A stretch of 64,000 nucleotides of DNA from Elusimicrobiota bacterium (GTDB taxonomy: Bacteria; Elusimicrobiota; Elusimicrobia; FEN-1173): NCBI GenBank assembly GCA_016715645.1, contig JADJZR010000004.1, forward strand, positions 37,269 through 101,268. The letters are read 5' to 3'. The translations under genes were made by a program, and so were the position numbers. The notes under the pieces were generated by a model. It saw nothing but the letters and a program-made list of their open reading frames with translations, was not told the DNA's origin and did not search any database. Below are positions 13,499 to 62,403 of the stretch, piece after piece (the stretch's first letter is position 1; each line of letters starts with the position of its first letter).

Positions 13499-13511
13499 GT
13501 GTTCCTCCCGG

Positions 13512-14966: not shown

Positions 14967-15871
14967 CGTCCGCGCAGTCTCCTTCGAATTTTGGACCGGA
15001 TGATGATGGCCGTAAAGTTTAATCCGAACGTCAGGACCAACAGCACCAACACCGTGGCATACAAGATCGGCAACGTGGCGTCCACGTCGGGACTTTGGGT
15101 GGCCATCACGTAGACGTGGTAGCCCAATTCCATGAACTGGTGGTTGAGTCGCGTGGGGAGGTGCGGAAGGTAATACGCCGCGCCGGTGAATAAAATAGGC
15201 GCCACTTCGCCTGCGCCGCGGCTGACGGCCAAAATAGTTCCGGTTAAAATCCCGCCCACGGCTTGGGGCAACAACACATGGCGAACCATTTGCCAGCGGG
15301 TGGCCCCCAGGGAATAGGCCACTTCACGATGGCTGGGGGGTACGACGCGCAGGGCCTCTTCCGTGGAGACGACCACCGTGGGAAGGGTGAGTAAAGCCAA
15401 TGTCAACGCCGCCCACAGGATGGCCGGTTGGCCGAAATAGAGTTTTCCGTTAAAGAAGACCGTGTCCAGCCCCTGGCCCACGAACTGAATAAAAAATCCC
15501 AAACCGAAGAGGCCGAAGACAATGGCGGGCACTCCCGCCAAGTTTTGTATGGCCAGCCGAACCACATGGATCCAACGGGAATTTTTGGGAGCGTACTCTT
15601 GCAAGTAAATGGCCGTGGAGACCCCCAAGGGGACCACCGCCACCGTCATCAAGAGCACCAGAACGGCCGTGCCGAAAATGGCCGGAAAAATGCCCCCTTC
15701 CGTCATGCCGCTGTGGGGGGCTTGGCTGAGGAAGGCCCATGAAATGTGGCCGATCCCATGGCGGACAATATTGCCCAAAATGAGCGCCACCATCGCTGTT
15801 AAAAGAAGGCAGGCGAACCCGGTGACCGCCGTAAAAAACACGCTGGTGAAATTGATCCAGCGCCGTTTCAT
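14963..15871 (-). CDS. pstA: phosphate ABC transporter permease PstA
   Basis: 302 aa, six TM segments and the EAA-loop motif of PstA. Confidence 0.85.
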   Translation of the reverse strand: MKRRWINFTSVFFTAVTGFACLLLTAMVALILGNIVRHGIGHISWAFLSQAPHSGMTEGGIFPAIFGTAVLVLLMTVAVVPLGVSTAIYLQEYAPKNSRWIHVVRLAIQNLAGVPAIVFGLFGLGFFIQFVGQGLDTVFFNGKLYFGQPAILWAALTLALLTLPTVVVSTEEALRVVPPSHREVAYSLGATRWQMVRHVLLPQAVGGILTGTILAVSRGAGEVAPILFTGAAYYLPHLPTRLNHQFMELGYHVYVMATQSPDVDATLPILYATVLVLLVLTFGLNFTAIIIRSKIRRRLRGR

Positions 15872-16806
15872 CGTCGGCCCGTGAGCTTACGGTTCATGCG
15901 GCCCACCCACATTTGGCCCAAAAGGTTGATTAAAAACGTGAAGATAAAAAGCAATACGCCAATTAAGAACAGCACGTGGTAGTGAGGGCTTCCCCGGACC
16001 ACCTCGCCCAACTCGGATGCCACTGTGGCCGACAGGCTCCGAAACCCGTAGCCTAAATTCCAGGCGGGAATGGCTTGGTTGCCCGAGGCCATCAGCACGA
16101 TCATGGTCTCCCCGATGGCGCGGCCGAACCCCAAAATCCCCGCGGCGAACAGGCCCGGAAACGCGGCCGGCAACACCACCCGTCGGGCTGTTTGCCACGG
16201 CGTCGCGCCCAAGGCGATCGACCCATGACGGTAGCTTTGGGGAACGGCGGTGAGCGCGTCTTCCGCCACGGTGAACACGATGGGAATCACCGCCAGGCCC
16301 AACGCGATACCGGCGTTGACCGTGTTGAGCCGATAGTCCAACCCGAACAGGTCTTGAATGGTGGACGCCATCACAATCAGAGCGAAAAATCCGAGCACCA
16401 CCGATGGTATCCCCGCCAACATTTCAATGACGGGTTTGACGATTTCCCTCAGCCAGGGCGGGGCGAACTCTGACGTAAACAGCGCCGCCCCCAACGCCAA
16501 AGGGAACGCGAACACCAACGCCACCAAGGTCACTTTCAGCGTGCCGATCATGAGAGGCCACAAGGAATATTTCGGCATTTCCGATACCGGTTGCCACATG
16601 TGCGAGGGGGGTTCGCCCTCTTCGGGAACCTGGGCGATGAACAGTTTTGACAGGCTCGCCTCCTGGCGTGCCTCCGCCGAGGTGAACAGGGGCAGAGCTT
16701 CTTTTCCAATAAACACAAAAATCAGGATCAACCCGACTATGGCCACGCCCGCGCTGACGCGGATGCCGTTTTCAATGATTCGTTCACGCAGGGGGGGGCG
16801 GTTCAT
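15868..16806 (-). CDS. pstC: phosphate ABC transporter permease PstC
   Basis: 312 aa PstC-like permease. Overlaps pstA by 4 nt. Confidence 0.85.
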   Translation of the reverse strand: MNRPPLRERIIENGIRVSAGVAIVGLILIFVFIGKEALPLFTSAEARQEASLSKLFIAQVPEEGEPPSHMWQPVSEMPKYSLWPLMIGTLKVTLVALVFAFPLALGAALFTSEFAPPWLREIVKPVIEMLAGIPSVVLGFFALIVMASTIQDLFGLDYRLNTVNAGIALGLAVIPIVFTVAEDALTAVPQSYRHGSIALGATPWQTARRVVLPAAFPGLFAAGILGFGRAIGETMIVLMASGNQAIPAWNLGYGFRSLSATVASELGEVVRGSPHYHVLFLIGVLLFIFTFLINLLGQMWVGRMNRKLTGRR

Positions 16807-17681
16807 TGTTTTTGGGGGGACCCGATGGGGTAATAGCCGACTTTGGCCACGATGGCCTGGCCTTCAGGGCTCAAAACAAAATCAACGAAGTTGTTAATGG
16901 CGCCCGCGGGCTCGTCGCGCAGATAAAAAAAGAGGTTTCGGCTGACCGGATAAGAGCCATCGAGGATATGGGTTTCGTTAGGCAAAATGCCCGGCGTGGC
17001 CGCGTCGGGTTTGATGGCGCAAAAGCGAATTCCTTTCGCGTAGGCCGCGCCGCCGTAGCCGATGCCCCGTTTATCGCGGGCCACGGCGTTGGCCACCGAC
17101 GCGGTACCGGGCAGACACTGGGCGAACGGGGTGAAATCTTTTTTCTTCAGCACATGTTCTTTGAAAAATTCGTAGGTGCCGGAATTGTTCTCTCGGGAAT
17201 AAAGAATGATCTTTTGATCCGCGCCGCCCAGGTCGCGCCAGTTGGTGATTTTCCCTCGGTAGATCAAAGCCACCTGTTCGAGAGTGAGTTCGCGCAGAGG
17301 ATTGGCCTCATTGAGGTAGATCGCGATGCCGTCTTTGGCCACGGCGATTTCGATCGGGGAACGGCCCGTTTTGGCTTGAAGGGCGACCCGCTCTTTTTCC
17401 TTCATCGGTCGAGAGGAAGCGCAGATATCCGTGGCCCCTCCTAAAAGCGCGGCAATACCTGTGCCCGACCCGCCGCCCGTGACCTGAATCACTGCTGACG
17501 GTCGATCAAACATGTATTTTTCCGCCCACCGCTGGTTTAAAATCACCATGGTGTCCGACCCTTTGATAGTGACAGCCTCAGAGGCCGTCACCGAAAAGCC
17601 GTAAATAGCCGACAATAGGAAAGAAAAGAATTTTTTCACGCTAAAGAATCTATCAGTTTCCAACTGGTTCAGGAAGGGCAT
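16803..17681 (-). CDS. pstS: phosphate-binding protein PstS (copy 1)
   Basis: PBP-like phosphate-binding fold (TIKGSDTM... GSGTG). First gene of the pstSCAB-phoU operon. Confidence 0.8.
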   Translation of the reverse strand: MPFLNQLETDRFFSVKKFFSFLLSAIYGFSVTASEAVTIKGSDTMVILNQRWAEKYMFDRPSAVIQVTGGGSGTGIAALLGGATDICASSRPMKEKERVALQAKTGRSPIEIAVAKDGIAIYLNEANPLRELTLEQVALIYRGKITNWRDLGGADQKIILYSRENNSGTYEFFKEHVLKKKDFTPFAQCLPGTASVANAVARDKRGIGYGGAAYAKGIRFCAIKPDAATPGILPNETHILDGSYPVSRNLFFYLRDEPAGAINNFVDFVLSPEGQAIVAKVGYYPIGSPQKQ

Positions 17682-47422: not shown

Positions 47423-48156
47423 TGAGACACCTGTTCGATCGAAAGTGGTTCAAGGGCCACCGCAACGAAAAGGTCTTCTAGATTCTTTTTTCCGTGCAAA
47501 GCGGGCAAGGTTTTGGGATCTCCTTCCAACAAAATTCGACCCCGTGAGAGAAAGAGAACCCGGTTGCAGACCTCGGCCACTTCGTGCATGTTGTGGGAGG
47601 TCCACAACACGCCGGCCCGGCTCTCGTCAACGTAAGACCGGATCTCCAACCGGATCCGGCGCGCCGTGGCGGGGTCCAAGGAGGCCGTGGGCTCGTCCAG
47701 AAGAAGAAGAGGAGGGTGGTTTAAGAGGGCCTTGGCCAGGGACACCCGGGTTTGTTCGCCGGACGACAGGGTGCCGCATTTGACGTGGCGAAATTTCCGA
47801 AGGTCGAATTGTTCCAGGAGTGCGTCGATCCGATTCCGCGGGTGAGCCACGCTGTAGAGCAGTGAGAAAACCCGCAGGTTTTGATAAACGGTCAGGTTTC
47901 CGGGAAGCGGCGCATAGCCCGCCGCAAAGTTCATGCGGGAGAGAGCATTGCTTCGTTGGGTCGAAAGAAAAGACCCTTCGACCGCGATAAACCCTGAATC
48001 GGGTTCCAAGACGCCCATCACCATATTAATGGTGGTGGTTTTGCCCGCTCCGTTAGGTCCCAAAAGACCAACGATCTCGCCCGGCCGAACGCAGAAGGAC
48101 ACCCCGTCCACGGCGGCCACCGTTGCAAACCTTTTGCGAAGCGAATCAATCGTCAA
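47419..48156 (-). CDS. ABC transporter ATP-binding protein
   Basis: Walker A GPNGAGKTT, the LSSGEQTRVSLA signature and Walker B LLLDEPT. Confidence 0.85.
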   Translation of the reverse strand: MTIDSLRKRFATVAAVDGVSFCVRPGEIVGLLGPNGAGKTTTINMVMGVLEPDSGFIAVEGSFLSTQRSNALSRMNFAAGYAPLPGNLTVYQNLRVFSLLYSVAHPRNRIDALLEQFDLRKFRHVKCGTLSSGEQTRVSLAKALLNHPPLLLLDEPTASLDPATARRIRLEIRSYVDESRAGVLWTSHNMHEVAEVCNRVLFLSRGRILLEGDPKTLPALHGKKNLEDLFVAVALEPLSIEQVSQ

Positions 48157-48236
48157 AACGTCGATAAAAAATCCCCCTGAATCGAACGCGCTTTCTGCTA
48201 TCTTACTTAATCTAAAGCTTTCAAACGTCGAATCTC

Positions 48237-48260
48237 GGGGGACGTATTTAGGTAATTAGG
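48237..48260. repeat. left terminal inverted repeat of the IS-like element
   Basis: GGGGGACGTATTTAGGTAATTAGG. Confidence 0.7.
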
Positions 48261-48298
48261 TTATTGACTTTCCAAGAATAGCTTGATATTAATTGACC

Positions 48299-49312
48299 AT
48301 GCCCCGTCAGGCGCGCCTTGATTTTCCTGGTCTTCTCCACCATGTAATCGCTCGCGGTATTGAGCGACGGCCGATCTTTAACTCTCCAACGGATTACGCC
48401 GATTTCTTGTCCCGTATCGAAATCAACTATTCTCGATATCCATGTCAAATATACGCCTGGGCCCTTATGCCAAACCACTTTCATCTCCTGGTTCGGTCAG
48501 GGGAGAATGGGATTTTCCCGTTCATGAAGAGGCTCATGACAGGTTATGCCGTCGGGTTTAATCATCGGCACAAACGCGCAGGGCATCTTTTTCAAAACCG
48601 GTACAAGTCTATTGTTTGCGAGGAAGGTCCCTATTTTCTTGAACTTATTCGGTACATTCATTTAAACCCCTATCGGGCCAAAATGGTCAACAATTTAGAG
48701 GAACTTTCGACATTTCCTTATACGGGGCACCCTGTTCTATTGGGCAAAAAGTCGTGCTCCTGGCAAAATCAAGATGGTGTTTTGTCCTTGTTCTCCCGAA
48801 TTTCATCGGAGGCAATCAGAGGCTATTTCCAATTCATGAAGGATGGGGAAAACCAGGGGTCCCGACCCGATTTGATGGGAGGAGGCCTGATCCGGAGCCA
48901 AGGGGGAGTTCGGGCGGTTCTTTCAAATAATCAGCCTGGGAACCGTGAAGCCTATGATTCCCGTATTCTAGGGTCGGGAGAATTTGTGGAGGGGGTTTTA
49001 AGACGGGCGGAAAAGGAAATGGAGTTGGAATACGAACTGAAAAGGAAAGGCGTGGGGATTCAGGATATTGCGAAGAAAATCGCTAAAGAGGAAGGGGTGG
49101 ATGAAGCCGACCTCTACCGTCGTGTAAGGACAGAGGCGGTATCCCGGGCGAAGGCGAGGCTGATTCATGTGGGTGTGGAATATTTGGGTCGGACGAACCG
49201 GGAAATGGCACTACTAACGAGGATGTCGGATCCCTCTGCCAGCGAAGCTCGGAGAAAAGGAGCAGGTTATTTTAGGGAAAACGAAGTCGCGGGATGGCTA
49301 TTACCTAATTAA
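48299..49312 (+). CDS. IS200/RAYT-like HuH tyrosine (Y1) transposase with a C-terminal HTH-like extension
   Basis: HuH motif PNHFHLLV and a RAYT-like LFQNRY...YIHLNP block. The ~150-aa C-terminal tail (..REMALLTRMSDPSASEARRKG) looks HTH-like. The candidate ATG follows TTGACT-17-TATTAAT. Confidence 0.7.
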   Translation: MPRQARLDFPGLLHHVIARGIERRPIFNSPTDYADFLSRIEINYSRYPCQIYAWALMPNHFHLLVRSGENGIFPFMKRLMTGYAVGFNHRHKRAGHLFQNRYKSIVCEEGPYFLELIRYIHLNPYRAKMVNNLEELSTFPYTGHPVLLGKKSCSWQNQDGVLSLFSRISSEAIRGYFQFMKDGENQGSRPDLMGGGLIRSQGGVRAVLSNNQPGNREAYDSRILGSGEFVEGVLRRAEKEMELEYELKRKGVGIQDIAKKIAKEEGVDEADLYRRVRTEAVSRAKARLIHVGVEYLGRTNREMALLTRMSDPSASEARRKGAGYFRENEVAGWLLPN

Positions 49313-49327
49313 CTAAATGCGTCCCCC
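49304..49327. repeat. right terminal inverted repeat of the IS-like element
   Basis: CCTAATTAACTAAATGCGTCCCCC, reverse complement 22/24 identical to the left end. Confidence 0.7.
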
Positions 49328-49353
49328 ACTGCGGGGACCGAAATGGAGGGGGC

Positions 49354-50889
49354 TTGCGTATTGCTTTGATTGATTTGGGTACTAACGCGGTGAGGTTTGA
49401 TGTTTATGAACTGTCGGGGCGGGGCGAACCGTGTCGGCTTCACCGGGAACGGCTGGCCGTGCGGTTGGGGGAGGGCGTTTTTGTTCGGGGCCGGTTGGCC
49501 CCGGCGGCCATCCGTCGGACCTTGGCGGCGTTTGTCAGTTTCAAAAAAACCTGTCATCGGTTGGGTGTCGATCGAATGACAGCGTTCGGTACCAGCGCCC
49601 TGCGCGATTCGGCCAACAGCGAACTGTTGTTAGGCCTGATCAAACGCCGCACCGGTATTGAGGTCCGTGTGATTTCCGGACAGGAAGAGGTTTGGTTGAT
49701 CGTTTAAGGCATTTTGGTCCATGAGAATCGTTTGGCCAAGGGGCTGGCGGCCTTGGTGGATATCGGCGGGGGAAGCGTGGAGATCACGCTGTGTCGGGGC
49801 CGTCGGTTGTTGAGGTCCACCAGTTTTAAGTTGGGCGTCGCCCGCCTGCAACAGGTCTTTTTAAAAACGATCCCTCCGCGCGCGGGGCCAGGGGAAAAGT
49901 CGCCCCTCGCCAAACTCCGTCGGCACGTTCGTGCCCTGTTGGCGGAGGGCGCTCCGCGAGGCGGGTGGCCAAACGTGTCTCGAATCGTGGGGTCGGCGGG
50001 CACCATTCGGGCCCTGGACCGGATTCATCGCGCCGCCGGCGGTGACTTTTTGACCCCCAAACACTTGAACCGATGGGCCGAGCATTTTTCAACCTTGTCC
50101 CGGACGGGGTTGGCCCGGGTTCCCGGCATGGATCCGAAACGGCCCGACACCATTCTGGCGGGGGTGGTTGTGTTGGAAGAAATAGCTCGGGCTTTAGGAT
50201 CTCCCCGGGTGGATCCGACGGATTATTCTCTCCGTGACGGCATGCTCGAAGAAGAAATCGAAACCGCCCGCCGGGGCGCGGGAACGGCGTTGGACTTCCA
50301 TTTAAAAGACGTTTTTGAGAAGGCCCGCGGGTGGGGGGTGCCGGTCCGTCATTTGCGACATGTGCAAGGGTTTGCCGAACGGTTGTTCGACCGCCTCGCG
50401 CCCCTTCACCGACTCGGCCGCGCCCATCGGGATTATTTAGTGGCCGCCGCGTGGCTTCAAGACGTGGGCGAGTTGATGAGCCCTGTCCATCACGAGCGCC
50501 ACTCGTATTACATGGTGAAAAACGGGGATTTTCCCGGAGTTGACGCGCGGGAATTGGAATGGATCGGGCAGTTGGTGCTGTGGCACAAAGGGGGCAAAAT
50601 TGATCGAACCGACGTTCCGTTCAAAGAAACCGCTCGCTGGAAAATATTTTGCCGGCTTCTTTCCCTGCTTCGAATCGTTGATGCTTTGGAAAAACCCCAA
50701 GCCCACCTTGTGACGCTCCGGGGGGTGCACCGGCAACGGGGTCGGGTGCGTTTGCGGCTGAAGGGCAATCGGTCGGCCGTGGATCTGGCCATTTTGAGGG
50801 TCGAACAAAAAAAAGAACTTTTCGAGAAAACTTTCCGTCGCACCCTCACCGCGGTGATTGATTCGTCTGCGAAAAAGTCTGTTCGTTGA
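49354..50889 (+). CDS. ppx: Ppx/GppA family exopolyphosphatase, interrupted by an in-frame TAA at 49705-49707
   Basis: ORFs 49354..49707 and 49714..50889 are in the same frame. Across the stop the sequence reads EVWLIV*GILVHENRLAKGLAALVDIGGGS, colinear with the Ppx/GppA motif. A C-terminal HD-like region is present. Confidence 0.75.
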
Positions 50890-53005
50890 GCGCGTGGTCG
50901 CGGCACAGGGGGGTGTCGCGGTATCGGCGTTTGGCCAATTCTTCAAAACAAGTTTGGGCCCGAACGGGTGTGGGCAGATGGAGAGAGTCGGGAAGCGGAC
51001 GCAACGCCGTCGTCGACCGCTTCCGCCAGGTCCCCTGCGGGGTCAGTTCCCGGGCTTTGACCGTGTCGGCCAAATAAATGGGGATGACCGTCTCCCGGAT
51101 GAAATGGCGCAGTCGATCGTCCAGAATGGGAAAGGCGATTTCGAGGCGGGAGAAAAAGTTTCGGGGCATCCAGTCGGCGCTGGACAAATACATGCGGTCC
51201 GAATCCCCGAAATAATAGATGCGGCTATGTTCCAGAAAACGGTCCACGATCGAAAGGACACGGATGTTGTCGCTCAGTCCTTTCACCTGCGGAATCAAGG
51301 AGCAGGCTCCCCGCACCATCAGGTTGACCTTCACCCCCGCTTGGGACGCCCGGTAGAGGCATTCGATAATTTTTTCGTCGACCAGCGCGTTCACTTTGGC
51401 AAACAAGCCGGCCGGTCGGCCCGTGAGGGCCGCGGCGGTTTCCGCCTCGATGGATTGAACCAGCAGGCGGTGCATCCGGGCGGGGGCCGGGACGACGGTC
51501 TTAAACCCGCCAGGGATTTCGCCGCGGCACAGGGCGTCAAAAAAGAGCCTGGCGTCTTCCCCGTATTCCGGTCGTGCCGAGAGGATAGCCAAATCTTCAT
51601 AGGCCCGCGCTGTGGCGGCGTTGTAATTACCGGTGGACAGGTGCGTGTAGAGGCGTTCGACATTGTTTTCAACACGGGTCACCAGCGCCACTTTGGCGTG
51701 AACCTTGAGACGCCCGAACCCAAAGGCCACTTCCACACCCGCTTTGCGCAGTTCGTCGGCCAAGCGGAGATTGTTCATCTCATCAAACCGGGCCCTCAAT
51801 TCGATCACCACACGCACTCGCTTTTTTTTCTCCGCGGCGTTTTTAAGCGCTTCAACGACTGGAGAAAGCGCGTCCATGCGGTAAACCGTTTGCTGAATGG
51901 AGGTCACTTTCGGGTCGTGGGCGGCGGCCCGAACAAAATTGACGTAACCCTCGAAACTTTCGTAAGGATGGTGGAGAAGGATGTCCCGGTGGTGAAGTTC
52001 TTCAAAGATGGATTTTTTGTCGGTCATGGCCGTCATGAGAAACGGTTGAAGGGGAGCGAGGCTGAGTCGGGGTTCTGTGCGCACCGGTTCGGGCAACCGG
52101 GCTGGGACGGACCAGAGCCCCGACAGATGAAGACTTCCCGGCGCCGGGTGGACTTGCCGAGGGGATAGGTGAAGGGCTGAAACGCATCGACCCAACAGGT
52201 CCACAGGGGCTTCCCCCCCGTATTGAAGGCGAACCGGCCGACCCCGGTCCCGGGATCCCACTCCGGTCCGAATGATGTCGGGAACCGTGGAAGGGTCCTC
52301 TTCGGAAATTTCCACGGGCATGTCGCCGTCGCGGGTGAGACGAAAAAGGGCGGGCACGTCCGGGAGCCGATAGGCGGGGCCGGCGTGGCTGAGGAGAAGG
52401 TCATCCAGGAAAAAAATCCGGCACGGCCCCGTGTCGGAAACGTCGATGTAAATCGGAGGCAATCGCCGGGACACGGTGATCCAAACGCCGGCCCGAAACA
52501 CCAGGGCACTCTTTAAATTTTCAAGGGAAGAGAGTCGGTGCGGTCGAAAAGGTTCCGGGGGCGGCAGGTGCGGCAATATCTCGTGGGAAAAAAGAGTTTG
52601 GCCCCGGAAAAACGCTTCGCTCTCCGCGGGCGGTCGTCGCACCAGGACCACGCCGGTCGGTTCCAAAGCCGTCGTCAAAAGGTCCAAGGTCTCCGTTTGT
52701 TTGGCCACGAGACCCGTCACCATGTCCAGCAGAGTGTTGCGGGTTTCGCGCAGATGGTGCGCCGTTTGCCGGTTTTGTTGGAGTCGGATGGACCGGTCTA
52801 AGGAAGCGTATCGGATCATGAAAAACTCGTCCAAATTTGATGCGGTGATGGCGAGAAATTTTAACCGTTCCAGGAGAGGGTTCGAGCTGGACCGGGCCTC
52901 GGCCAGTACCCGCTCGTTAAATTGAAGCCCGCTGAGGTCCCGGTGAATAAAAGGCCGCCGTGGAGAACTGAGAAGATGCGGAAGCGTAGGAAGAAAATGG
53001 TTCAC
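50846..53005 (-). CDS. ppk: polyphosphate kinase 1
   Basis: N-terminal FNERVL...NLDEFF and a C-terminal PLD-like tandem HKD architecture. 719 aa. Confidence 0.9.
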   Translation of the reverse strand: MNHFLPTLPHLLSSPRRPFIHRDLSGLQFNERVLAEARSSSNPLLERLKFLAITASNLDEFFMIRYASLDRSIRLQQNRQTAHHLRETRNTLLDMVTGLVAKQTETLDLLTTALEPTGVVLVRRPPAESEAFFRGQTLFSHEILPHLPPPEPFRPHRLSSLENLKSALVFRAGVWITVSRRLPPIYIDVSDTGPCRIFFLDDLLLSHAGPAYRLPDVPALFRLTRDGDMPVEISEEDPSTVPDIIRTGVGSRDRGRPVRLQYGGEAPVDLLGRCVSALHLSPRQVHPAPGSLHLSGLWSVPARLPEPVRTEPRLSLAPLQPFLMTAMTDKKSIFEELHHRDILLHHPYESFEGYVNFVRAAAHDPKVTSIQQTVYRMDALSPVVEALKNAAEKKKRVRVVIELRARFDEMNNLRLADELRKAGVEVAFGFGRLKVHAKVALVTRVENNVERLYTHLSTGNYNAATARAYEDLAILSARPEYGEDARLFFDALCRGEIPGGFKTVVPAPARMHRLLVQSIEAETAAALTGRPAGLFAKVNALVDEKIIECLYRASQAGVKVNLMVRGACSLIPQVKGLSDNIRVLSIVDRFLEHSRIYYFGDSDRMYLSSADWMPRNFFSRLEIAFPILDDRLRHFIRETVIPIYLADTVKARELTPQGTWRKRSTTALRPLPDSLHLPTPVRAQTCFEELAKRRYRDTPLCRDHALNEQTFSQTNQSPR

Positions 53006-53055
53006 GGAACGTTCATCGATTTCATCGCGAAGATAACCAATACCAGCCGAGTGGG

Positions 53056-53736
53056 CTACGAGGTTTGTGGATCAATGGCCGAATGGCCATGGCGAATGTC
53101 TTTGCCGAGGACCATGTAGACGACGTCTTCGGCGATGTTGGTGGCGTGGTCGCCGATGCGTTCCATGTTTTTGGACAGCAAGATCAATTCCACAAAGGCT
53201 TCCGACCGGGGCGGATCCGTCCGGATCAACGAAATTAAATCCGTCAAGGCTTTCGCTTTCAACCGGTCTTCTTCTTCGTCTTCCAACAACACTTTTTGGG
53301 CCAATTGCACGTCGCGCCGGGCGTAAGCGTCTAAACTTTCGCGCAACATTTTTTGGGCCACCTCGGCCATGCGCGTCACCCAATCCAGCTGAGGGACCGG
53401 CGGTTCTTTAAAAAGGTGGTAATAGCCGGTCTGGCCGGCGTTGACGGCCATGTCGGCGATGCGTTCCAAATCGGTGTTGACTTTCAAAGCGGCTGTGAGA
53501 AACCGCAGATCCACCGCCATGGGCTGATGCAGGGCCAAGAGTTTGACCACCGTATCGTCGATGTCCATGTGGAGCCGGTTGGCTTCGGTTTCCATGGTGA
53601 AGACTTCTTCCGTGAGGGCGCTGTCGCGTTCGACCAGGGCCTTGACGGTTTTCTGGATCATGGACTCGCAGAGAGCCCCCATGCCCAAAATCTTTTTTTC
53701 CAGCGCTTTCAAGTCGTGGTCAAAGTGTCGGTCCAT
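53056..53736 (-). CDS. phoU: PhoU (copy 2)
   Basis: Two PhoU repeats (..LERIADMAVN.. and ..RIGDHATNIAEDV..). Confidence 0.85.
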   Translation of the reverse strand: MDRHFDHDLKALEKKILGMGALCESMIQKTVKALVERDSALTEEVFTMETEANRLHMDIDDTVVKLLALHQPMAVDLRFLTAALKVNTDLERIADMAVNAGQTGYYHLFKEPPVPQLDWVTRMAEVAQKMLRESLDAYARRDVQLAQKVLLEDEEEDRLKAKALTDLISLIRTDPPRSEAFVELILLSKNMERIGDHATNIAEDVVYMVLGKDIRHGHSAIDPQTS

Positions 53737-54542
53737 TATCCAAATCTCCCTGTGATGTAATCTTCGGTCAGTTTATTCGACGGGTTGGTGAAAATCTTTT
53801 CGGTGCGGTCGAATTCCGCCAGTTCGCCGATGTACATGAACCCGGTGAAATCGGACACTCGGGCCGCCTGCTGCATGTTGTGGGTGACAATAAGGATAGT
53901 CACGCGGGTTTTTAACTCGGCCACCAGTTCTTCCACTTTCCCCGTGGCGATAGGGTCCAACGCGCTGGTGGGCTCGTCAAACAGAATGATTTCCGGGTCG
54001 GTCACCAACGCCCGGGCGATACACAGGCGTTGTTGTTGTCCACCGGAAAGGTTGGCGCCCAAAGAATGAAGCCGGTCTTTCACTTCGTCCCACAGGGCGG
54101 CTCCGCGCAAGGCCTGTTCTACCCGCTCGTTGATATCGGATTTTTTGAGGTCTCCGCGCACGCGCAGTCCGTAAGCCACGTTTTCAAAAACAGTTTTTGG
54201 AAACGGATTCGCTTTCTGAAACACCATGCTGATCCGCATCCGGACCTCGATGGGATCCACGTCGGCTCCCAGGATGTTGGTGTTTTCGGGAAGGAGGCGA
54301 ATGCCGCCCCCGTCGTAGCGGTTGCCGGGATACAGATCGTGCATGCGGTTGAAACAACGCAGAAGGGTCGTTTTTCCGCATCCGGACGGGCCGATGAGCG
54401 CGGTCACCTTTTTTTCCGCCACCGAGAGGGTGATGTTTTTTAACACCCGGTGGGTGCCGTAATAAAAGCTGAGGTCTTGCACGCGGGCCTTGACGGCGGC
54501 CCCCGCCAGGACGTCGGGGGAAACGTTGAGGGTTTCTACCAT
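53736..54542 (-). CDS. pstB: phosphate ABC transporter ATPase PstB (copy 3, intact)
   Basis: [37 protein letters not shown]...[15 protein letters not shown]...[12 protein letters not shown]...YITGRFG. Start taken at MVETLNV. Confidence 0.85.
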
Positions 54543-55444
54543 TTTATCCTCTTTCGGAACCGATATCGAATCCAGATGGCCGCGCCGTTCATGGCCAGGG
54601 TCATGGCCATGAGCGTTAATCCCGCGGCGGCGGCGTTGAGGTGAAACGCTTTTTGCGGGCGGGAGACCCAATTGAACGCTTGAATGGGCAACACGGTGTA
54701 AGGCGATTTCAACCATTCAAAAGAAAGAAAAGGAAACGTTCCGGTAAAGGGAGAGGCCGGCAGAAAGGCGATAAACGTGAGCGCGCCGATGGTGATCAGC
54801 GGGGCGCTTTCCCCAATGGCTCGGGACAGGCCGATGATAACGCCCGTCAAAATGCCGCCCGCCGAATAGGGCAAAATGTGATGGCGAATCATTTGCCATT
54901 TGGTGGCGCCCACGGCAAAGGCGGCTTCCCGGATAGAGCCGGGGATGGTGCGAATGGCTTCCCGGGTGGCCATAATCACGATCGGTAAGATGAGAAGGGC
55001 CAGGGTAAGTCCCGCGGTCAAAATGCTCATCCCAAATTGAAATTTATAAACGAAAAGGCCCAAAGCCATCAGGCCGTAGACAATGGAGGGAACCCCCGCC
55101 AGGTTGGCGATGTTGATCTCGATCAAGGTGGTCATAACATTTTTGGGCGCGTATTCTTCCAGGTAAACCCCGGCCGCGACGCCCATGGGCACGGCCGCGA
55201 GGGCGGTGACGAACATGACCACGCCAGTACCCACCCAGGCGGACAGAATGCCCGCCTTGTCCGGGAATCGGGAAGGAAACGCAGTGAAAAAATTCCAATT
55301 AAGCCGGGCGGTTCCGTCCCAGGCCAGGTCGATCATGAGGGCCAACAACGTCACGATCCCCACCAGCGTGGCGATCAGTCCCACCAAAGAAAACACTTTG
55401 TCGGTGCGTTTGCGTTGGGCGATGTCTTTGCGGATTTTCATCAA
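54536..55444 (-). CDS. pstA: PstA (copy 2)
   Basis: PstA-type permease, 302 aa. Confidence 0.85.
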
Positions 55445-56427
55445 TATTTCTCCCGGAACCGTTTGCGCAAAACGTGGCCGCCGATATTAAACACCAGGGT
55501 CATCAGCATCAACGTCAGGCCCGCGGCAAAAATGGTTTGGTAGCCCAAACTTCCGTGGGGCAGATCGCCCAACGACACCTGCACGATGTAGGCGGTGATG
55601 GTGGCCGCGGGTTCCATGGGATTGAAGGTCAAGTGGGGTTGCATCCCGGCGGCGATGGCGACGACCATCGTTTCACCGATGGCCCGGGAAAAACCCAACA
55701 CGTAAGCCGCCGCAACGCCGCTCAGGGCCGCTGGGAAAACGACCCGGGTGGACGTCTGAAACCGGGTGGCCCCCATGGCGTAGCTGGCTTCCCGCAGGTG
55801 CATGGGCACGGCCCGCATGGCGTCTTCCGAAAGGGAGCTCACGTAGGGGATGATCATCACTCCGATGACCAACCCCGCCGACAGCATGTTGAACCCGGGA
55901 AGCGATGGAATGAAGTGGCGCAAAAGGGGTGTCACGAACAACAAGGCGAAATAGCCGTAAACCACGGTCGGCACGGCGGTGAGAAGTTCCAGAAAAGGTT
56001 TCACCACTTCACGCACCCGGTGGGGGGCGTATTCCGACAGATAAATGGCCGTGATGGTTCCCACCGGCAACGCCAGGCACAAGGCCACCGCGGCGACGGT
56101 AGCCGTCCCGGCCACCAGGGGCATGATGCCGTAGTGGGCGTCGTCAAAAAGCGGTGTCCATTGGGTGTCCGTTAAAAACGTGAACAACGAAACCTGCTTA
56201 AAAAAGGCAAGCGATTCAAACCCCAAAATTCCCACAATTCCCAAGGTGATGGCAATGGACGACGCGGCGGCCAAAAAGAGGGTAGCTTGGATGGCCCGTT
56301 CTTGCCAGCGCTGAAGAAGCCCCGGTCCCCGTAAGCGGGGCAAGGGGGACAAACGATGAACACCGCCCGGCAACGAGGTTTCCCTCGTTACCGGGCGGTT
56401 CGATGCACGATGAGTCACCAAAGACAT
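55441..56427 (-). CDS. pstC: PstC (copy 2)
   Basis: PstC-type permease, 328 aa. Confidence 0.85.
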   Translation of the reverse strand: MSLVTHRASNRPVTRETSLPGGVHRLSPLPRLRGPGLLQRWQERAIQATLFLAAASSIAITLGIVGILGFESLAFFKQVSLFTFLTDTQWTPLFDDAHYGIMPLVAGTATVAAVALCLALPVGTITAIYLSEYAPHRVREVVKPFLELLTAVPTVVYGYFALLFVTPLLRHFIPSLPGFNMLSAGLVIGVMIIPYVSSLSEDAMRAVPMHLREASYAMGATRFQTSTRVVFPAALSGVAAAYVLGFSRAIGETMVVAIAAGMQPHLTFNPMEPAATITAYIVQVSLGDLPHGSLGYQTIFAAGLTLMLMTLVFNIGGHVLRKRFREKY

Positions 56428-56465
56428 AGATAGTCCTTAAAACCCAAGCCCCAACCGATGAAGCC

Positions 56466-57461
56466 CTAGAGTTTTGGTTTTCGGTTCAACAGTTCGGAGA
56501 TCGGAACGCCCACTTCGGATTTTCCGCCGAAAGCGGTTCCTGTCTGCCCTTTCTGGAACCGGTACAGAACGCTATTATACTCTTCTGCGGGGAGGGGAAC
56601 ATATTTAACTTCGTTCACGAGTTCCTGGGCGTGTTTAATATAAAACTCCACGTAGCGTTTCACCTCGGGTCTCCGGGCCGATTTTTTTGAGACGTAGATG
56701 AAGATCGGCCGGGACAAGGGAGCGTAGGTCCCGCTTTTCACCGTTTCCATGGCAGGGGAGACTCCGCCTTTTCCGCCGTCCACCGCGACCGCTTTAAGGG
56801 TTTCCATGTTTTCCAGGTAGTAGGCCAAACCAAAATACCCCAGACCGCCCTCGTCGTTGGTCACGCCTTGCACCAGGATATTGTCATCTTCCGAGGCGGT
56901 GAAATCGCCCCGGCTGGACTTGGCTTTGCCCACGATGGCTTCCGTGAAGTAGTCGAAGGTTCCCGAATCGGCCCCCGGACCGTACAGTTTCAACGGTTTG
57001 TCGGGCCAGGCGGGGTTGACTTGTTTCCAGGTTTTGATGTTGCCCTGGGCGGCGGGTTCCCATATTTTTTTAAGGTGCGCCACGGTCATGGTTTGGGCCC
57101 AGTTGTTTTTGGGGTTAATGACCACGGTCAACGCGTCGAACGCCACGGGGAGCTCAATGTATTGGATCCCGGCTTCCAGACACGCGTCCATTTCCTTGCG
57201 CAGAATGGGTCGTGACGCGTTGGAAATGTCGGTTTCTCCCCGGCAGAACTTCTTGAACCCCCCGCCGGTGCCCGAGATGCCCACGGTGACTTGGGTGGGT
57301 TCCGATTTCATGAACTCTTCCGACACCGCTTCGGTAATGGGGAACACGGTGCTGGACCCATCAATTTTGATCACATCCTTGGCGGCCCAGAGGCCGGGAG
57401 CGAAGGCGAGAACGAACGTGCCCGCCAGAAACCCTTTCATTGTTTTACGCATTGTGTCCAT
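56466..57461 (-). CDS. pstS: PstS phosphate-binding protein (copy 2)
   Basis: Signal peptide plus the PstS phosphate-binding fold (GSSTVFPITEAV... GISGTGGG). Confidence 0.8.
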   Translation of the reverse strand: MDTMRKTMKGFLAGTFVLAFAPGLWAAKDVIKIDGSSTVFPITEAVSEEFMKSEPTQVTVGISGTGGGFKKFCRGETDISNASRPILRKEMDACLEAGIQYIELPVAFDALTVVINPKNNWAQTMTVAHLKKIWEPAAQGNIKTWKQVNPAWPDKPLKLYGPGADSGTFDYFTEAIVGKAKSSRGDFTASEDDNILVQGVTNDEGGLGYFGLAYYLENMETLKAVAVDGGKGGVSPAMETVKSGTYAPLSRPIFIYVSKKSARRPEVKRYVEFYIKHAQELVNEVKYVPLPAEEYNSVLYRFQKGQTGTAFGGKSEVGVPISELLNRKPKL

Positions 57462-57466
57462 CCTCC

Positions 57467-58603
57467 TTAGAATTTAACCTGCAAGTCGACTTGTAGCAAT
57501 TGAATATCATGTTTTGTGCCGTCGATTTTTCTGGTGTCAAAATACTTGGCTTTAAGTTGAGTTACGTCCGATACCCCGTAGGCGAGCCAATAAATGTTAC
57601 CAACTCGGTTCGTCCCGGGGAAGTCGGAATCGTTGATGTCATCTTCGGTGGCGTCTTTGCCCACGGATTTTCGGAAGAACGCGGCTTCGAACCCTCTCTT
57701 CTTATCGGCCTTGCCCACAATTCCACCGGCCTGGAAACCGGTATTGTCATTCGGTTTAATGGACTCTCGGCTGGCCGTGTTTTTAATGAATGATCCTTGG
57801 ATCGATAAAGGCACATCAATGACCGGCAGGTTTGTGAATATTTCCCCGGTCACTTCGTTGACCCGGATATCGTTGGGAAACGTGTTGGTCCCCTGGGCCT
57901 TTCCCGGACTGGTGGTAAAGGTTTTGGAGGACTCGTTGACGAAATCATGAATCGCCCCGGCCAAGGTTATACGTGAATCAAACGGGAGTGGAAGAGTCAT
58001 TCCGACCTGATTAGAAAAAAGGTATTGGGGTCGATTGAGGGGAGCAGATCCAGCCACGTCCTCGTTGATCACGGACTGGAGGGCATTAAAGAAAACCCGT
58101 GAGTTTCCCAGTCGTAGTTTAAAAGTTTCCGCAATGCCTTCCGGGTTGTAATCCGTGTCCCACACAATGTCGGAGGCGTAGGCCTGCCACAGCGGATTTT
58201 TCATTCGCCCGCCGTAGAGTCCCACACCCTCCAGGGGTTTGAAATCAACATAAGCCAAATCAACCCAGACTTGCTTTTGGGCGGAGTTGTTGCCCAGGCT
58301 CTGGTTGGTGGAAGTCTGCTCTCCTGTTCCGGAAGCCAGTTGGGTTTTGACGCTGAGCTTAGAATCCAGCTTGTAATTCATCCCGATCCGGAGCCGATAC
58401 CGTTGACGATTGCTGGTCCTGTTGTCTTTGGTGGATGGAAATGTTTCTGTTTTAGATTCCTGGCGCAGACGAATGTCTCCTTTAATCTCAAGTTCACCGG
58501 CGTTTCCCAACTTGAGTTCAGCCGCGCTCAGGCTCGATCCGGCCAAGGCCGCAACCGCGCCCAGGACCATGTATTTGAACGATGCTCGTTGACGACGATT
58601 CAT
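57467..58603 (-). CDS. outer-membrane beta-barrel porin (candidate phosphate-selective porin), probably co-transcribed with pst copy 2
   Basis: Signal peptide MNRRQRASFKYMVLGAVAALAGSSLSAAE, alternating beta-strand pattern and a C-terminal aromatic (..DLQVKF). A GGGGAGGA RBS precedes the start. Only 5 nt separate it from pstS. Confidence 0.6.
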   Translation of the reverse strand: MNRRQRASFKYMVLGAVAALAGSSLSAAELKLGNAGELEIKGDIRLRQESKTETFPSTKDNRTSNRQRYRLRIGMNYKLDSKLSVKTQLASGTGEQTSTNQSLGNNSAQKQVWVDLAYVDFKPLEGVGLYGGRMKNPLWQAYASDIVWDTDYNPEGIAETFKLRLGNSRVFFNALQSVINEDVAGSAPLNRPQYLFSNQVGMTLPLPFDSRITLAGAIHDFVNESSKTFTTSPGKAQGTNTFPNDIRVNEVTGEIFTNLPVIDVPLSIQGSFIKNTASRESIKPNDNTGFQAGGIVGKADKKRGFEAAFFRKSVGKDATEDDINDSDFPGTNRVGNIYWLAYGVSDVTQLKAKYFDTRKIDGTKHDIQLLQVDLQVKF

Positions 58604-58622
58604 TGGTGTTTCCTCCCCTTGG

Positions 58623-58793
58623 TTAAGCGGCCCGGCGTAGTTGCCGGACGCTTTTTTCGATGTTTTGGATCCGATAGACGACGGCGTCGGCATCCATATC
58701 GTTGTTTTCCAGATCTTTCAGTGTTTCGCGAACGCGCGCTTCCGTTTCTTGAAGCGCGGCCCGGATTTGTTCCGCCTTGCTTGTGTGTCCCAT
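58623..58793 (-). CDS. small hypothetical protein (56 aa), not in the supplied ORF track
   Basis: ATG is preceded by a strong AAGGAGGT RBS 7 nt upstream. Predicted helical peptide MGHTSKAEQIRAALQETEARVRETLKDLENNDMDADAVVYRIQNIEKSVRQLRRAA. Heads the porin-pst transcription unit. Confidence 0.45.
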   Translation of the reverse strand: MGHTSKAEQIRAALQETEARVRETLKDLENNDMDADAVVYRIQNIEKSVRQLRRAA

Positions 58794-58874
58794 GCGGGGA
58801 CCTCCTTTTCGTCCTTTGTTTTGGAAACACTTTACCCGGAGCGGAGCGCAAAGGCCATTGTGGACATGTAAATC

Positions 58875-58892
58875 CTATGTGACGAACGCGTG
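58875..58892 (-). promoter_or_regulatory. candidate Pho-box-like operator: two 7-bp direct repeats separated by 4 bp
   Basis: Minus strand reads CCGTCAC-GCGT-TCGTCAC followed by ATAGGAT. E. coli-type Pho box is CTGTCAT-AAAA-CTGTCAC. Lies ~80 nt upstream of the small ORF ATG. Confidence 0.3.
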
Positions 58893-59040
58893 ACGGTTCC
58901 TTTACCGTCGAGAGATTCATTCCGAAATTGTCCGCAAGTCCCTGATTTGCGACGTGGATCGACGATAAAATAGACCCTAAAAAATTTACACGCTTTTTTT
59001 TTCGCCGAGGAAGAGACCTTTTAAGACGGAAAAAGAAACC

Positions 59041-59071
59041 CTTGACAGCCACTAGGGATGGTGGTGTAAGA
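59041..59071 (+). promoter_or_regulatory. candidate sigma70-type promoter upstream of nrdR (TTGACA...TAAGAT); a second extended -10 TGgTATAAT lies at 59140-59150
   Basis: TTGACA at 59041-59046 and TGTAAGAT 17-19 nt downstream. TGGTATAAT at 59142-59150 precedes an AGGAGG at 59155-59160. Confidence 0.35.
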
Positions 59072-59189
59072 TACGCCTTGCCACAAGCCCTGGCCGCAAC
59101 GAAGAGGTCGGGGACACCCAAACAACAACACGAACTACAAGATGTGGTATAATCCCAGGAGGAAGACTACCACCAATTGTGTGAGACCT

Positions 59190-59783
59190 ATGCGTTGCCC
59201 TACCTGCGATCACCCGGATGACCGTGTTCTCGACAGCCGACCCTTGGAAACAGCGTCGGTGATTCGTCGTCGCCGCGTTTGCCTGGGATGCGGCAAACGG
59301 TTCACCACGTACGAGCGGGTGGAATCAACGCCTTTGATGGTGGTCAAACGGGACAACCGGCGGGAACCGTTCAACCGGGACAAGATGCGCGAGGGTGTTC
59401 AGCGGGCCTGCCAAAAGCGTCCCATTTCGCCGGCCATGATCGAAAAGTTGGTGGCCGAGGTGGAATACAGTTTGCAGGATTTTGTGTTGGAAGTGCCTTC
59501 CGTGGAAATTGGCCAGCGTTTGTTGAAACGTCTTTATGATCTGGACGCGGTGGCGTATGTGCGGTTCGCGTCAGTTTATCGGTCGTTCGGTAACGTGGAC
59601 GACTTTATGTCGGAGTTGAACCACTTGAAAAAAGATTATGAAAAACGCGCGCGGTTAAAAGCGACGTTGGGCGCCGCCAAAGAGGCGAGCCTGCCCCGGG
59701 ATCCGGCGGATCCCCGATTCGCATCCGATCGCCCCGTCGAGTCGTCCCCGGTTTCCGGGGCGGACCGACTGGTCAAAGTTTGA
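59190..59783 (+). CDS. nrdR: transcriptional repressor NrdR, with a ~45 aa C-terminal extension
   Basis: N-terminal zinc ribbon MRCPTCDHPDDRVLDSR...CLGCGKRFTTYER followed by an ATP-cone domain. Confidence 0.85.
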   Translation: MRCPTCDHPDDRVLDSRPLETASVIRRRRVCLGCGKRFTTYERVESTPLMVVKRDNRREPFNRDKMREGVQRACQKRPISPAMIEKLVAEVEYSLQDFVLEVPSVEIGQRLLKRLYDLDAVAYVRFASVYRSFGNVDDFMSELNHLKKDYEKRARLKATLGAAKEASLPRDPADPRFASDRPVESSPVSGADRLVKV

Positions 59784-59790
59784 TTCTTCT

Positions 59791-62403
59791 ATGAATGAGA
59801 GAGGTCAGCCCATGAATCCCGTCCACACCCCAATCCGCACCAACGGCGCCCAGGCGCCGGAGTCCGTTCCCCCCCTTGCCGTGGGGAGCCCTCGTCCCAC
59901 ATCGGCCCGTCCGCCGGTTCGCCTGAGCGAAAACCAGCGAAAAGTGATTGCCGACAAATACTTACGCAACGATCCGTCCCCCGAAGTGTGGCTGGACCGG
60001 GTGGCCGCGAACATTGCGTTGGCCGAGCTATTGCACGCGCCGGAATCCGACGGTTGGCATTTATGGGACGGGGTTAAACGGCGGGTGATCGATGTGGCCA
60101 CGCGCAAAACCCACAAGTCGCGCATGAATTTGTTGCACCATGGGATTATCCAATCGGATGAACGGGACAAAAATTTCGCCGTGTTTTTGGGCAACCTGCG
60201 CCGGGCCGTTGCCGAGGTCCCGGAAGCCCGGGTTCTCATGGAAGAGTGGCGCGACCGTTTTTACGGGATGATGGCGCGGTTCGACTTTTTGCCCAATTCC
60301 CCGACGCTCATGAACGCGGGTCGGGAACTTCAGCAGTTGTCGGCCTGTTACGTGTTGCCGGTGCCGGATTCCATGGAAGGCATCGCCGACGCGCTCAAAG
60401 CCCAGGCGCTGATTCACAAGTCCGGCGGGGGCACGGGGTTTTCGTTCCAGCGGGTTCGGCCGTCAGGCGACAGCGTGAAATCCACCAAAGGCACGGCGTC
60501 CGGGGCCATCAGCTTTATGCAAATTTTCGACAAGATGACTGACGTGGTCAAACAGGGCGGAACCCGGCGGGGCGCCAACATGGGCATTTTGCCCTACTGG
60601 CATCCGGAAATTGAAGATTTCATCAACATGAAAACGAAACCCGGCGTCATGGAAAACTTCAATGTGTCCGTGACGGTCGACGGTAAATTCATGGAAGCGG
60701 CTCAAAAGGGCGAGGAATACGATTTGCTCAATCCCCGCACTCTTCAGCCCACCGGTAAGCGGGTGAACGCCCGGGACGTGTTCGAGAAAATGGTGGACGG
60801 CGCCTGGAAATCGGGCGATCCCGGCATTATTTTCATCGACCGCATCAACAACAGCCCTTCCAACCCCACGCCCCACCTGGGCCAAATCGAAAGCACGAAT
60901 CCCTGCGGCGAGCAGCCGTTGCTTCCCAACGAGCCGTGCAACCTAGGGTCCATCAACCTCGCTAACTTTGTCGAAGGGGAAGTGGGCCATGGAAAAATGA
61001 ATTGGGACCGGCTCGGCAAAACAGTGGCTTTGGCGGTGCGGTTTCTGGACGACGTCATCGAGGTCAACAACTATCCTCTCTCGCAAATCGAAGAGTTGTC
61101 CAAGGGGAACCGTCGGATCGGTTTGGGCGTGATGGGCTGGGCGGAAGCTCTGGTGAAAATGGGCGTCCCGTATGATTCCGACGAATCATTGAAAGCCGCC
61201 GGCGAGGTCATGGGGTTCGTGAACACGAAAGCCATGGAAGCCTCCGAGCTGTTGGCGGAAGAACGGGGGGTGTTCCCGAACTGGAAAGGCTCTATTTTCG
61301 ATAAGGACAGCCCCCATTTCCGAGGGGAAGAGCATCTGCCGCGCCATTGCGCCCGCACGACGATCGCGCCCACGGGAACGATCGGTTTAGCGGCGGGACT
61401 GCAGGGGGCGGGCATCGAGCCGTTCTTTGCGATCACCTACACCCGCTACAACGCAAAAGCGTTGGCCGCCCTGAAAAAAGGCGAGAAACCCGCCGACGGC
61501 GACGTGTTTTACGAGGTCAACCCGTTGTTTCGTGAAGTGGCGCGCCGCAACAATTATTTCGGTTTATCCGAAACGGACCTGTGGAAAAAAGTGGAGGCCA
61601 ACCACAAGTCGGTGCGGGGGATCAAAGAAATACCCGAGGCGGTGCAGAAATTGTTCGCCACCAGCCACGACGTGCCGGTGCCGTTTCACGTTCAAATCCA
61701 GGCGGCGTTTCAAACGCACACGGACAACGCGGTGTCCAAAACCATCAACATGCCCCACACCGCCACCCGCGAGGACGTCAAAAACGCCTACCGCCAGTCC
61801 TACGAAATGGGGTGCAAAGGCATTACCATTTACCGGGACGGCTCCAAGAGCCAGCAGGTGTTGAACCTGGGCGCCGCGGGCGCGCCGGCCGAAAAACCCA
61901 AAACCCGGGACGCGTCCCGGGGAATGTCGTCGGAGTATTACGAGATCCGCACGGGCCACGGCGGCTTGCACGTTCACATTGATTACGACGAAACGGGTCC
62001 GTATCGGTTGTTCACCAGCCTGTCGCCGCTGGGGACGGACATTTCGGGGCTCACGTCGGTGGTGGGCATCATGATTTCCAAGTATTTGGAAGCGGGCGGG
62101 GATCCCAAACGGATTCTGAAACATCTCAATTCCGTCAAAGGCGACCGGCCGTTCGGGTTCGGGGCCCAACGGGTGGACTCGATTCCCCACGCCATCGCCA
62201 TTGCCCTTCGCACCCATCTTCAAAAGCACGGAAAAATGGACGCCCCCGCTCCCGCCGCGTCGGACACCAAAAGCGGCGGTTTGGAATTGTGGGACCGATC
62301 GTCGGCCCTTTATTGCCCGGACTGTTTCTCGGCCAACGTGGCCCAGCAGAGCGGATGCACCGGCGTGACGTGCTTCGACTGCGGCCATTCGGAGTGTTCC
62401 TGA
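59791..62403 (+). CDS. nrdJ: class II (adenosylcobalamin-dependent) ribonucleotide reductase
   Basis: Active-site [12 protein letters not shown], a ..SKTINMPH.. block and a C-terminal Cys4 ribbon (CPDCFS...CFDCGHSEC). A second possible start at 59812 has a better RBS. Confidence 0.85.

Follow-up and report, generated by a model that had tools for sequence, protein, structure and literature searches.

A predicted Pho-type operon of an Elusimicrobiota bacterium combining a Porin_5-family porin with pst and phoU genes

A 64-kb stretch of DNA from an Elusimicrobiota metagenome-assembled genome (MAG), hereafter the window, carries a group of phosphate genes. Eight of them lie on the minus strand, from 58793 to 50846, in the order 56-aa open reading frame (ORF), porin, pstS, pstC, pstA, pstB, phoU, and ppk1, and are met by ppx on the opposite strand (Table 1). 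Gene identities were assigned with Pfam and NCBIfam profiles against curated cut-offs. The six genes from pstS to ppk1 exceeded the curated NCBIfam cut-offs, the exceptions among the eight being the small ORF and the porin. All five components of PstSCAB-PhoU were intact and above the cut-offs in this unit, and PPK1, which passed the equivalog cut-off of TIGR03705, had all four of its domains (PP_kinase_N, middle, C1, and C2). These matches bore out the gene identities, order, and strands given in an earlier reading of the same DNA, which had been made from the sequence alone (the sequence-only reading). Adjacent genes of the minus-strand unit either overlapped or were separated by at most 50 nt. 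A terminator scan of the unit gave no signal above chance, and an Rfam scan of positions 48000-59400 returned zero matches; ppk1 is probably the last gene of the operon.

Table 1 Positions of genes and promoter elements at the phosphate locus of the window.
Feature	Position	Strand	Description
Pho box	58879..58894	-	Direct repeat of GTCAC around GCGTTC (GTCACGCGTTCGTCAC), 11-bp phasing; exact GTCAY-N6-GTCAY
Third 11-bp-phased half-site, TTTAC	58872-58868	-	TTKAC at +7 (6 nt after box) in 34/41 sites
Conserved proximal block, CCACAATGG	58863-58855	-	CCCAnTAYGG-like; TAYGG-like element at +20 in 30/41 sites
-10-like hexamer, TAAAGT	58829..58834	-	Aligned consensus TAnAAT
56-aa small protein, first cistron	58623..58793	-	Ribosome-binding site AAGGAGGT; predicted two-helix hairpin
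Outer-membrane porin, 378 aa	57467..58603	-	Short Porin_5 (PF16930) subfamily, 130.8 bits (cut-off 22)
pstS, periplasmic phosphate-binding protein	56466..57452	-	TIGR02136, 310.6 bits (cut-off 206.6)
pstC, permease	55441..56427	-	TIGR02138, 267.5 bits (cut-off 196.45)
pstA, permease	54536..55444	-	TIGR00974, 262.5 bits (cut-off 193.45); 4-nt overlap with pstC
pstB, ATPase, 268 aa	53736..54542	-	TIGR00972, 357.4 bits (cut-off 343.2)
phoU	53056..53736	-	TIGR02135, 188.6 bits (cut-off 130.25)
ppk1	50846..53005	-	TIGR03705, 601.7 bits (cut-off 465.85); 50 nt after phoU
ppx (Ppx/GppA)	49354..50889	+	Ppx-GppA and TIGR03706 in both fragments; in-frame TAA at 49705-49707
ppx mutation cluster, 28 nt	49691..49718	+	Seven C>T and one T>A against L089/L090

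The Pho box, located some 86-101 nt ahead of the small ORF, proved on a scan of both strands to be the single exact match to GTCAY-N6-GTCAY in the window. Of 77 related loci, 40 had the same motif in the 800 nt preceding the porin; its density amounted to 0.68 per kb there and to 0.036 per kb elsewhere in these loci, a 19-fold enrichment. Control by phosphate, as implied by the sequence-only reading, thus gains in silico support from this canonical box, from its uniqueness in the window, and from its recurrence in the related loci. The promoter architecture was derived by aligning 41 box sites from related loci. In this alignment, TAnnnT began exactly 45 nt after the box at 25 sites and no more than 2 nt off that position at 30. 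GTCACGCGTTCGTCAC and the half-site TTTAC at 58872-58868 together provide at least two TGTCA-type repeats with 11-bp phasing upstream of the first gene, as is expected of a Pho promoter. Transcription is predicted to start near 58822, leaving a short leader before the ribosome-binding site (RBS) of the small ORF. Together with the synteny described below, these elements lend good in silico support to Pho-type control common to the porin and the pst genes.

Two other promoter assignments were discarded. CACAAT (58862-58857), taken as the -10 element with the second GTCAC at -35, was displaced by the 41-site alignment, which puts TAnAAT at +45; CACAATGG is a separate conserved block, distinct from the -10-like element. 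A sigma-54 promoter in the conserved proximal block was looked for by eye, and the spacing was unfit. In four Elusimicrobiota loci without the small ORF (L029, L034, L036, and L062), the porin ATG stands about 6-10 nt past the -10-like hexamer; leaderless porin mRNAs are suggested at these loci.

Several translation starts were revised. The porin begins at ATG 58603, preceded by a GGGGAGG RBS, and its signal peptide ends in SSLSA, followed by AELK; from this start, the protein is 100% identical to a 378-aa 'putative porin' of an Elusimicrobia bacterium at NCBI. Position 58693 marks only the longest ORF, which overlaps the small ORF, and was rejected in favor of 58603 on the grounds of the RBS, the signal peptide, and the database protein. 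With the porin starting at 58603, there is no overlap with the small ORF, whose end precedes the porin by 19 nt. For pstS, the start is probably 57452, notwithstanding the longest ORF from 57461: it stands 9 nt after GGAGG and gives 328 aa, as called in the conspecific contigs, with a signal peptide ending in GLWA before AKD. The 5-nt gap between the porin and pstS in the sequence-only reading consequently holds for the longest pstS ORF only and widens to 14 nt with the likely start. The pstB start was placed at 54542, not 54716, in agreement with L089 and L090, where the gene was called with 268 aa, and overlaps the pstA stop by 7 nt. The strong RBS ascribed to the 56-aa ORF was recovered as AAGGAGGT, followed by a 6-nt spacer before the start.

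A scan for relatives of the porin, reduced to one genome per species, gave 80 loci, and synteny was counted in the 62 that extended at least 2.5 kb downstream of the porin. In 55 of these 62, pst genes began within 3 kb downstream on the same strand, in lineages of Elusimicrobiota, Nitrospirota (including Manganitrophaceae), Planctomycetota, and Verrucomicrobiota. At loci where tblastn missed PstS, an ORF for an E. coli-type PstS occupied the gap. One Nitrospirota contig contained two porin-pstS pairs and also encoded PsiE, alkaline phosphatase, and OmpR-type regulators. The tight spacing, the lack of a terminator above chance, and this synteny support in silico the earlier proposal that the porin is co-transcribed with the Pst importer. 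That the porin, pst, and polyphosphate genes are neighbors by chance, with no shared regulation, is scarcely credible, being contradicted by gene order and promoter motifs that are kept across phyla.

The porin scored 130.3-130.8 bits against Porin_5, with no other Pfam family over threshold, and PF16930 was carried by all 76 of its homologues. It belongs to the short forms, having 378 aa where the model has 535 positions, and the best matched stretch corresponds to model positions 138-334. The suggestion that it might belong to the OprO/OprP family had to be abandoned: Porin_O_P (PF07396) gave no match in a Pfam scan even at E ≤ 10, phmmer against PDB sequences found none, a 51-sequence porin profile matched nothing among PDB sequences but the N-terminal part of a 'major outer membrane protein' (E = 1.8e-5), and neither OprP nor OprO appeared in the top 50 Foldseek matches in the PDB. 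No sequence match to the enterobacterial general porins (OmpF/PhoE type) was found by Pfam or by phmmer against PDB sequences either.

The barrel expected from the sequence was obtained with AlphaFold. Using the 51-sequence alignment behind this profile, the monomer was predicted as a 16-stranded barrel (predicted local distance difference test (pLDDT), 84.8; predicted template modeling score (pTM), 0.80), a strand number generic to many porins, with a long internal loop at residues 134-154 that holds a short helix. Foldseek ranked the OmpM1 barrel first (E = 1.4e-14; TM, 0.61-0.74), followed by the general porins OmpF, OmpC, PorB, and OmpU with E values of about 1e-9. Among the homologues, R47, R68, R70, and R72 were invariant, R45 and R66 nearly so, and D43 was conserved, these residues alternating along strands 1-2; further conserved elements were the segment GTGEQTSTNQ, the internal-loop motif SDxVWDxDxNPEG, and VKF at the C-terminus.

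These features bear on whether the porin is instead a non-specific general diffusion pore, possibly the main porin of the cell, which is co-expressed with pst and at most PhoE-like, not OprP-like. Its top Foldseek matches are OmpM1 and general porins of the OmpF/OmpC/PorB type; the loop with the short helix sets conserved acidic residues (D145, D149, and D151) and NPEG opposite the arginines of strands 1-2, as in general porins; and the conserved motifs are common to Porin_5 proteins that have no pst linkage. However, the linkage to pst over four phyla and the Pho box favor a dedicated role in phosphorus acquisition, as do the two porin-pstS pairs in some genomes, and we regard a general pore as unlikely. 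A further alternative is that the barrel admits other phosphorus species (pyrophosphate or short polyphosphate, phosphite, or organophosphate) and not orthophosphate. The presence of ppk1 in the operon and of alkaline phosphatase nearby in some relatives would agree with it, whereas a PstS-type orthophosphate-binding protein is the direct partner in every case; this alternative appears decidedly improbable. The phosphate selectivity put forward in the sequence-only reading gained no support from sequence or fold and is, from the context of the gene, a putative property of the porin.

Two side observations concern the evolution of the porin. Between the window (57467-58603) and an Elusimicrobiota MAG derived from enhanced biological phosphorus removal (EBPR) (L008:604-1764), the porins share 70% identity and the flanking genes 93-98%, the first ~57 porin residues being nearly alike. 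The porin body has either a mosaic origin or a fast rate of change, as one would expect of a protein exposed at the cell surface. Long Porin_5 proteins were found at L081:4714-7122 and L086:5494-7047, one a 517-aa ORF and the other with a longest ORF of 802 aa, from Halochromatium and Asticcacaulis, and their genes are preceded by MotA/ExbB-like and TonB-like genes, not by pst. A second Porin_5 clade, distinct in function and made up of long forms, is suggested by this context.

Its conservation shows the 56-aa ORF to be a genuine gene. In about 17 non-redundant Elusimicrobiota loci, the interval from the Pho box to the porin holds homologues of 55-62 aa, which as a rule end in LRRLREAA; they share 18-46% identity and align without internal gaps. 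An exhaustive phmmer search yielded about nine related small-protein clusters only. From the single sequence, AlphaFold predicted a helical hairpin (helices 6-29 and 35-55; pLDDT, 89.5), and the protein had no signal peptide, no transmembrane segment, and no Pfam family. DUF948 was rejected as a family for it, since the match fell below threshold and the relatives had none, and a relation to PhoU was dismissed because hhalign showed no similarity. As the protein would be cytoplasmic and its gene is promoter-proximal, we favor, with low confidence, a role as a regulatory or chaperone-like partner of the system. A different ORF of 65 aa takes the position of the small ORF in Nitrospirota loci. 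One Nitrospirota contig has two copies ending in ASCRRExxRAVG, of which one immediately precedes a porin-pstS pair and the second comes after an OmpR-type regulator (L007:7760-7957 and L007:15108-15305); no relation of these to the Elusimicrobiota small protein was detectable.

At the far end of the unit, the 44-nt 3' overlap between ppx and ppk1 was confirmed (ppx stop, 50887-50889; ppk1 stop, 50846-50848), although it is not general, being 11 nt in L088. The sequence-only reading had taken ppx as one ORF, which it is not in this assembly: the in-frame TAA divides it into 117 and 391 codons, and the EEAR motif has become EEVW. Ppx/GppA domains I-III are nevertheless present across the two fragments (Ppx-GppA and Ppx-GppA_III). 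Intact relatives have CAA (75% identity), CGA (94%), or CAT (L089 and L090) at the position of the stop codon, i.e., Q, R, or H. The conspecific L089 and L090, 98.8% identical to the window over 9.4 kb, contain an uninterrupted ppx of 511 codons, which overlaps ppk1 by the same 44 nt and has the same neighbor resembling a REP-associated tyrosine transposase (RAYT). Conspecific contigs were found via the phoU and pstA-1 products; exact-product look-ups for the ppx fragments, ppk1, and phoU-1 gave no match.

The eight substitutions of the 28-nt cluster change GCC CGG to GTT TGG, GCC CAT to GTT TAA, and GCC to GTC, turning the conserved EEARLIAHGILAH into EEVWLIV-stop-GILVH. The remaining 106 of the 114 mismatches against L089/L090 form no comparable cluster and are mostly scattered single-base differences. 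Outside the patch, ppx differs from L088 by 82 synonymous and 29 non-synonymous codons, indicating purifying selection, and the lesion is therefore a consensus artefact or else a clustered mutation that arose very recently in a single strain. An artefact of assembly or sequencing, with a functional gene in the organism, would fit the two conspecific assemblies with intact ppx among the same neighbors, the purifying selection on the rest of the gene, and a possibly uneven consensus quality, which the indel-rich decay of another pst unit (see below) could reflect. On the other hand, a run of eight substitutions with CCC>TTT twice, which is no homopolymer indel and replaces conserved motif residues, fits a real clustered event in one strain. 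We rate the artefact a little below even odds.

The sequence-only reading had also placed polyphosphate turnover together with phosphate uptake. The co-location stands: the adjacency of phoU and ppk1 and the convergent ppx recur in L004, L006, L009, L089, and L090, other Elusimicrobiota have ppk1 a few kb upstream of the porin, and the co-location of polyphosphate and uptake genes is accordingly conserved. However, the stop codon in ppx leaves two possibilities: polyphosphate turnover may not be complete in this strain, or this site may be misassembled. Two relatives have a gene between ppk1 and ppx, a SixA-like His_Phos_1 phosphatase (L006:15817-16296) and an unannotated 99-aa ORF (L004:18143-18442), which is absent from the window, where both genes overlap. 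Directly upstream of ppx, a 339-aa protein (48293-49312, +) has an N-terminal IS200-like Y1 transposase domain and scored 58.5 bits against the REP-associated tyrosine transposase model, below the cut-off of 80. The 18-nt hairpin GTCCCCGCAGTGGGGGAC follows this gene at 49321-49338; no second copy was present in the window, and hence no evidence there of a REP family. L004 and L088 have other genes in its place, so that the ppx flank has been rearranged.

The phoU-pst genes described above had been called the second such unit. There are indeed two in the window, and the first, at 12821-17681 on the minus strand, is degenerate in this assembly. It consists of pstS-pstC-pstA, two tandem pstB, and phoU, both pstB copies being frameshifted. 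One has lost its 5' end (a deletion of about 95 nt) and its Walker A motif is ruined (GHHWTGGKRKTT); in the other, LSGGQ has become LPPEQ. In the conspecific L092, both PstB genes are intact (256 and 255 aa). The window and L092 are 99.6% identical over pstS-pstC-pstA, and 93% with 13 gap openings over pstB-pstB-phoU. On the other side of the phosphate operon, nrdR and a gene for a ribonucleotide reductase of class II type, which includes a TSCPD domain, run divergently (59142-62403, +). The two sides share a 348-nt intergenic region that contains an A/T-rich stretch, and the nrdR/ribonucleotide reductase neighbors recur in the conspecific contigs and in L004.

Taken together, these findings point to a Pho-regulon operon that would act as follows. 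Under phosphate limitation, a PhoB/PhoP-type response regulator, encoded outside the window, would bind the GTCAC/GTCAC/TTTAC half-sites (58894-58868) and activate a promoter with the -10-like TAAAGT (58834-58829). One transcript would then encode the 56-aa helical protein, the porin, pstS, pstC, pstA, pstB, phoU, and probably ppk1. The 16-stranded short Porin_5 barrel would admit phosphate, or small phosphorus anions, through the outer membrane, PstS would capture phosphate in the periplasm, and PstCAB would import it. PhoU would feed back on the system and PPK1 would store the imported phosphate as polyphosphate, which the product of the convergent ppx, interrupted by a nonsense codon in this assembly, would degrade. 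We put the probability of this mechanism as a whole at about 0.72.

Several results weigh against it. A generic sigma-70 consensus scan gave nothing above chance and did not pick up the TAAAGT promoter, and the center of the Pho box is some 60-70 nt ahead of the inferred start, a longer distance than in the classical E. coli layout. No phoB or phoR was identified among the window ORFs scanned. The sequence comparisons gave nothing that links the porin to OprO/OprP or PhoE, and the structural neighbors of its model are general porins and OmpM1. Furthermore, R45, R47, R66, R68, R70, R72, STNQ, and DxVWDxD recur in the long proteobacterial Porin_5 proteins without pst neighbors; they are therefore family-defining, not a phosphate filter, and provide no argument for phosphate specificity. 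The locus thus reads as an ordinary Pho-type operon whose predicted outer-membrane component is a Porin_5-family porin with a strong but indirect link to phosphate.

A broader proposal, which we advance tentatively and hold at somewhat less than an even chance, is that short Porin_5 proteins form a widespread, unrecognized class of Pho-box-controlled phosphate-uptake porins, evolutionarily separate from OprO/OprP and PhoE. They would be promoter-proximal in the pst operons of Elusimicrobiota, Nitrospirota, Planctomycetota, and Verrucomicrobiota, preceded in part of the Elusimicrobiota by a new helical-hairpin protein of 55-60 aa that would act with the porin, e.g., as a regulator or assembly factor. 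To our knowledge, the passage of phosphate over the outer membrane is known experimentally from only a few Proteobacteria (PhoE and OprP/OprO). The present data give a testable functional assignment to a Pfam family named merely 'putative porin' and, for several diderm phyla that have received little study, a ready promoter model built on the Pho box. Among them are lineages from wastewater and EBPR systems, settings in which the uptake of phosphorus and its storage as polyphosphate are of practical importance. With ppk1 as its last gene, a pst-phoU operon would tie the synthesis of polyphosphate directly to the response to phosphate starvation. A literature search on Porin_5/PF16930 or on porin-pst linkage in these phyla found nothing relevant; its coverage was incomplete and an earlier description is possible. 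What is new is the functional context of the Porin_5 family, the conserved promoter model, and the small partner protein; the operon logic is conventional and the gain incremental, not conceptual.

Among known systems, OprP and OprO of Pseudomonas aeruginosa are Pho-regulated porins specific for phosphate and pyrophosphate, OprO being concerned with pyrophosphate or short polyphosphate; they form trimeric 16-stranded barrels with an arginine ladder and a lysine cluster along the channel. The window porin resembles them in its Pho box and Pst context and may do so in its predicted 16-stranded outer-membrane barrel and its strand 1-2 arginines, and two distant Porin_5 members match Porin_O_P weakly at the N-terminus (P0076, E = 1.2e-6; P0034, E = 3.8e-4). 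It differs from them in the Pfam and Foldseek comparisons given above and in being the promoter-proximal structural gene of the operon itself. PhoE of Escherichia coli is a member of the general porin family and of the Pho regulon with a preference for anions, and phoE is a stand-alone gene outside pst. The likeness here lies in the Pho-box control, in a general-porin architecture with an acidic internal loop facing a basic barrel wall, and in the Foldseek matches to OmpF/OmpC-type porins (E about 1e-9; TM, 0.5-0.6), whereas a sequence match to the enterobacterial family is lacking. With the long proteobacterial Porin_5 proteins, the window porin shares GDxRxR, RxRxRxRL, STNQ, and DLVWDxD; the Halochromatium and Asticcacaulis forms follow ExbB/TonB-like genes, whereas the window porin is short and pst-linked.

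The promoter can be compared in the same way. GTCAY-N6-GTCAY corresponds to the core of CTGTCATAWAWCTGTCAY, the consensus of the Pho box in E. coli. Sites of B. subtilis PhoP and E. coli PhoB consist of 11-bp-phased TTAACA or TGTCA repeats; the third half-site of the window, TTTAC(A/C), resembles the PhoP half-site and has the same phasing, whereas the box lies farther from the -10 element than in E. coli Pho promoters. In function, the window porin comes closest to PhoE and OprP/OprO, which are under Pho regulation; in family membership, it is a Porin_5 protein.

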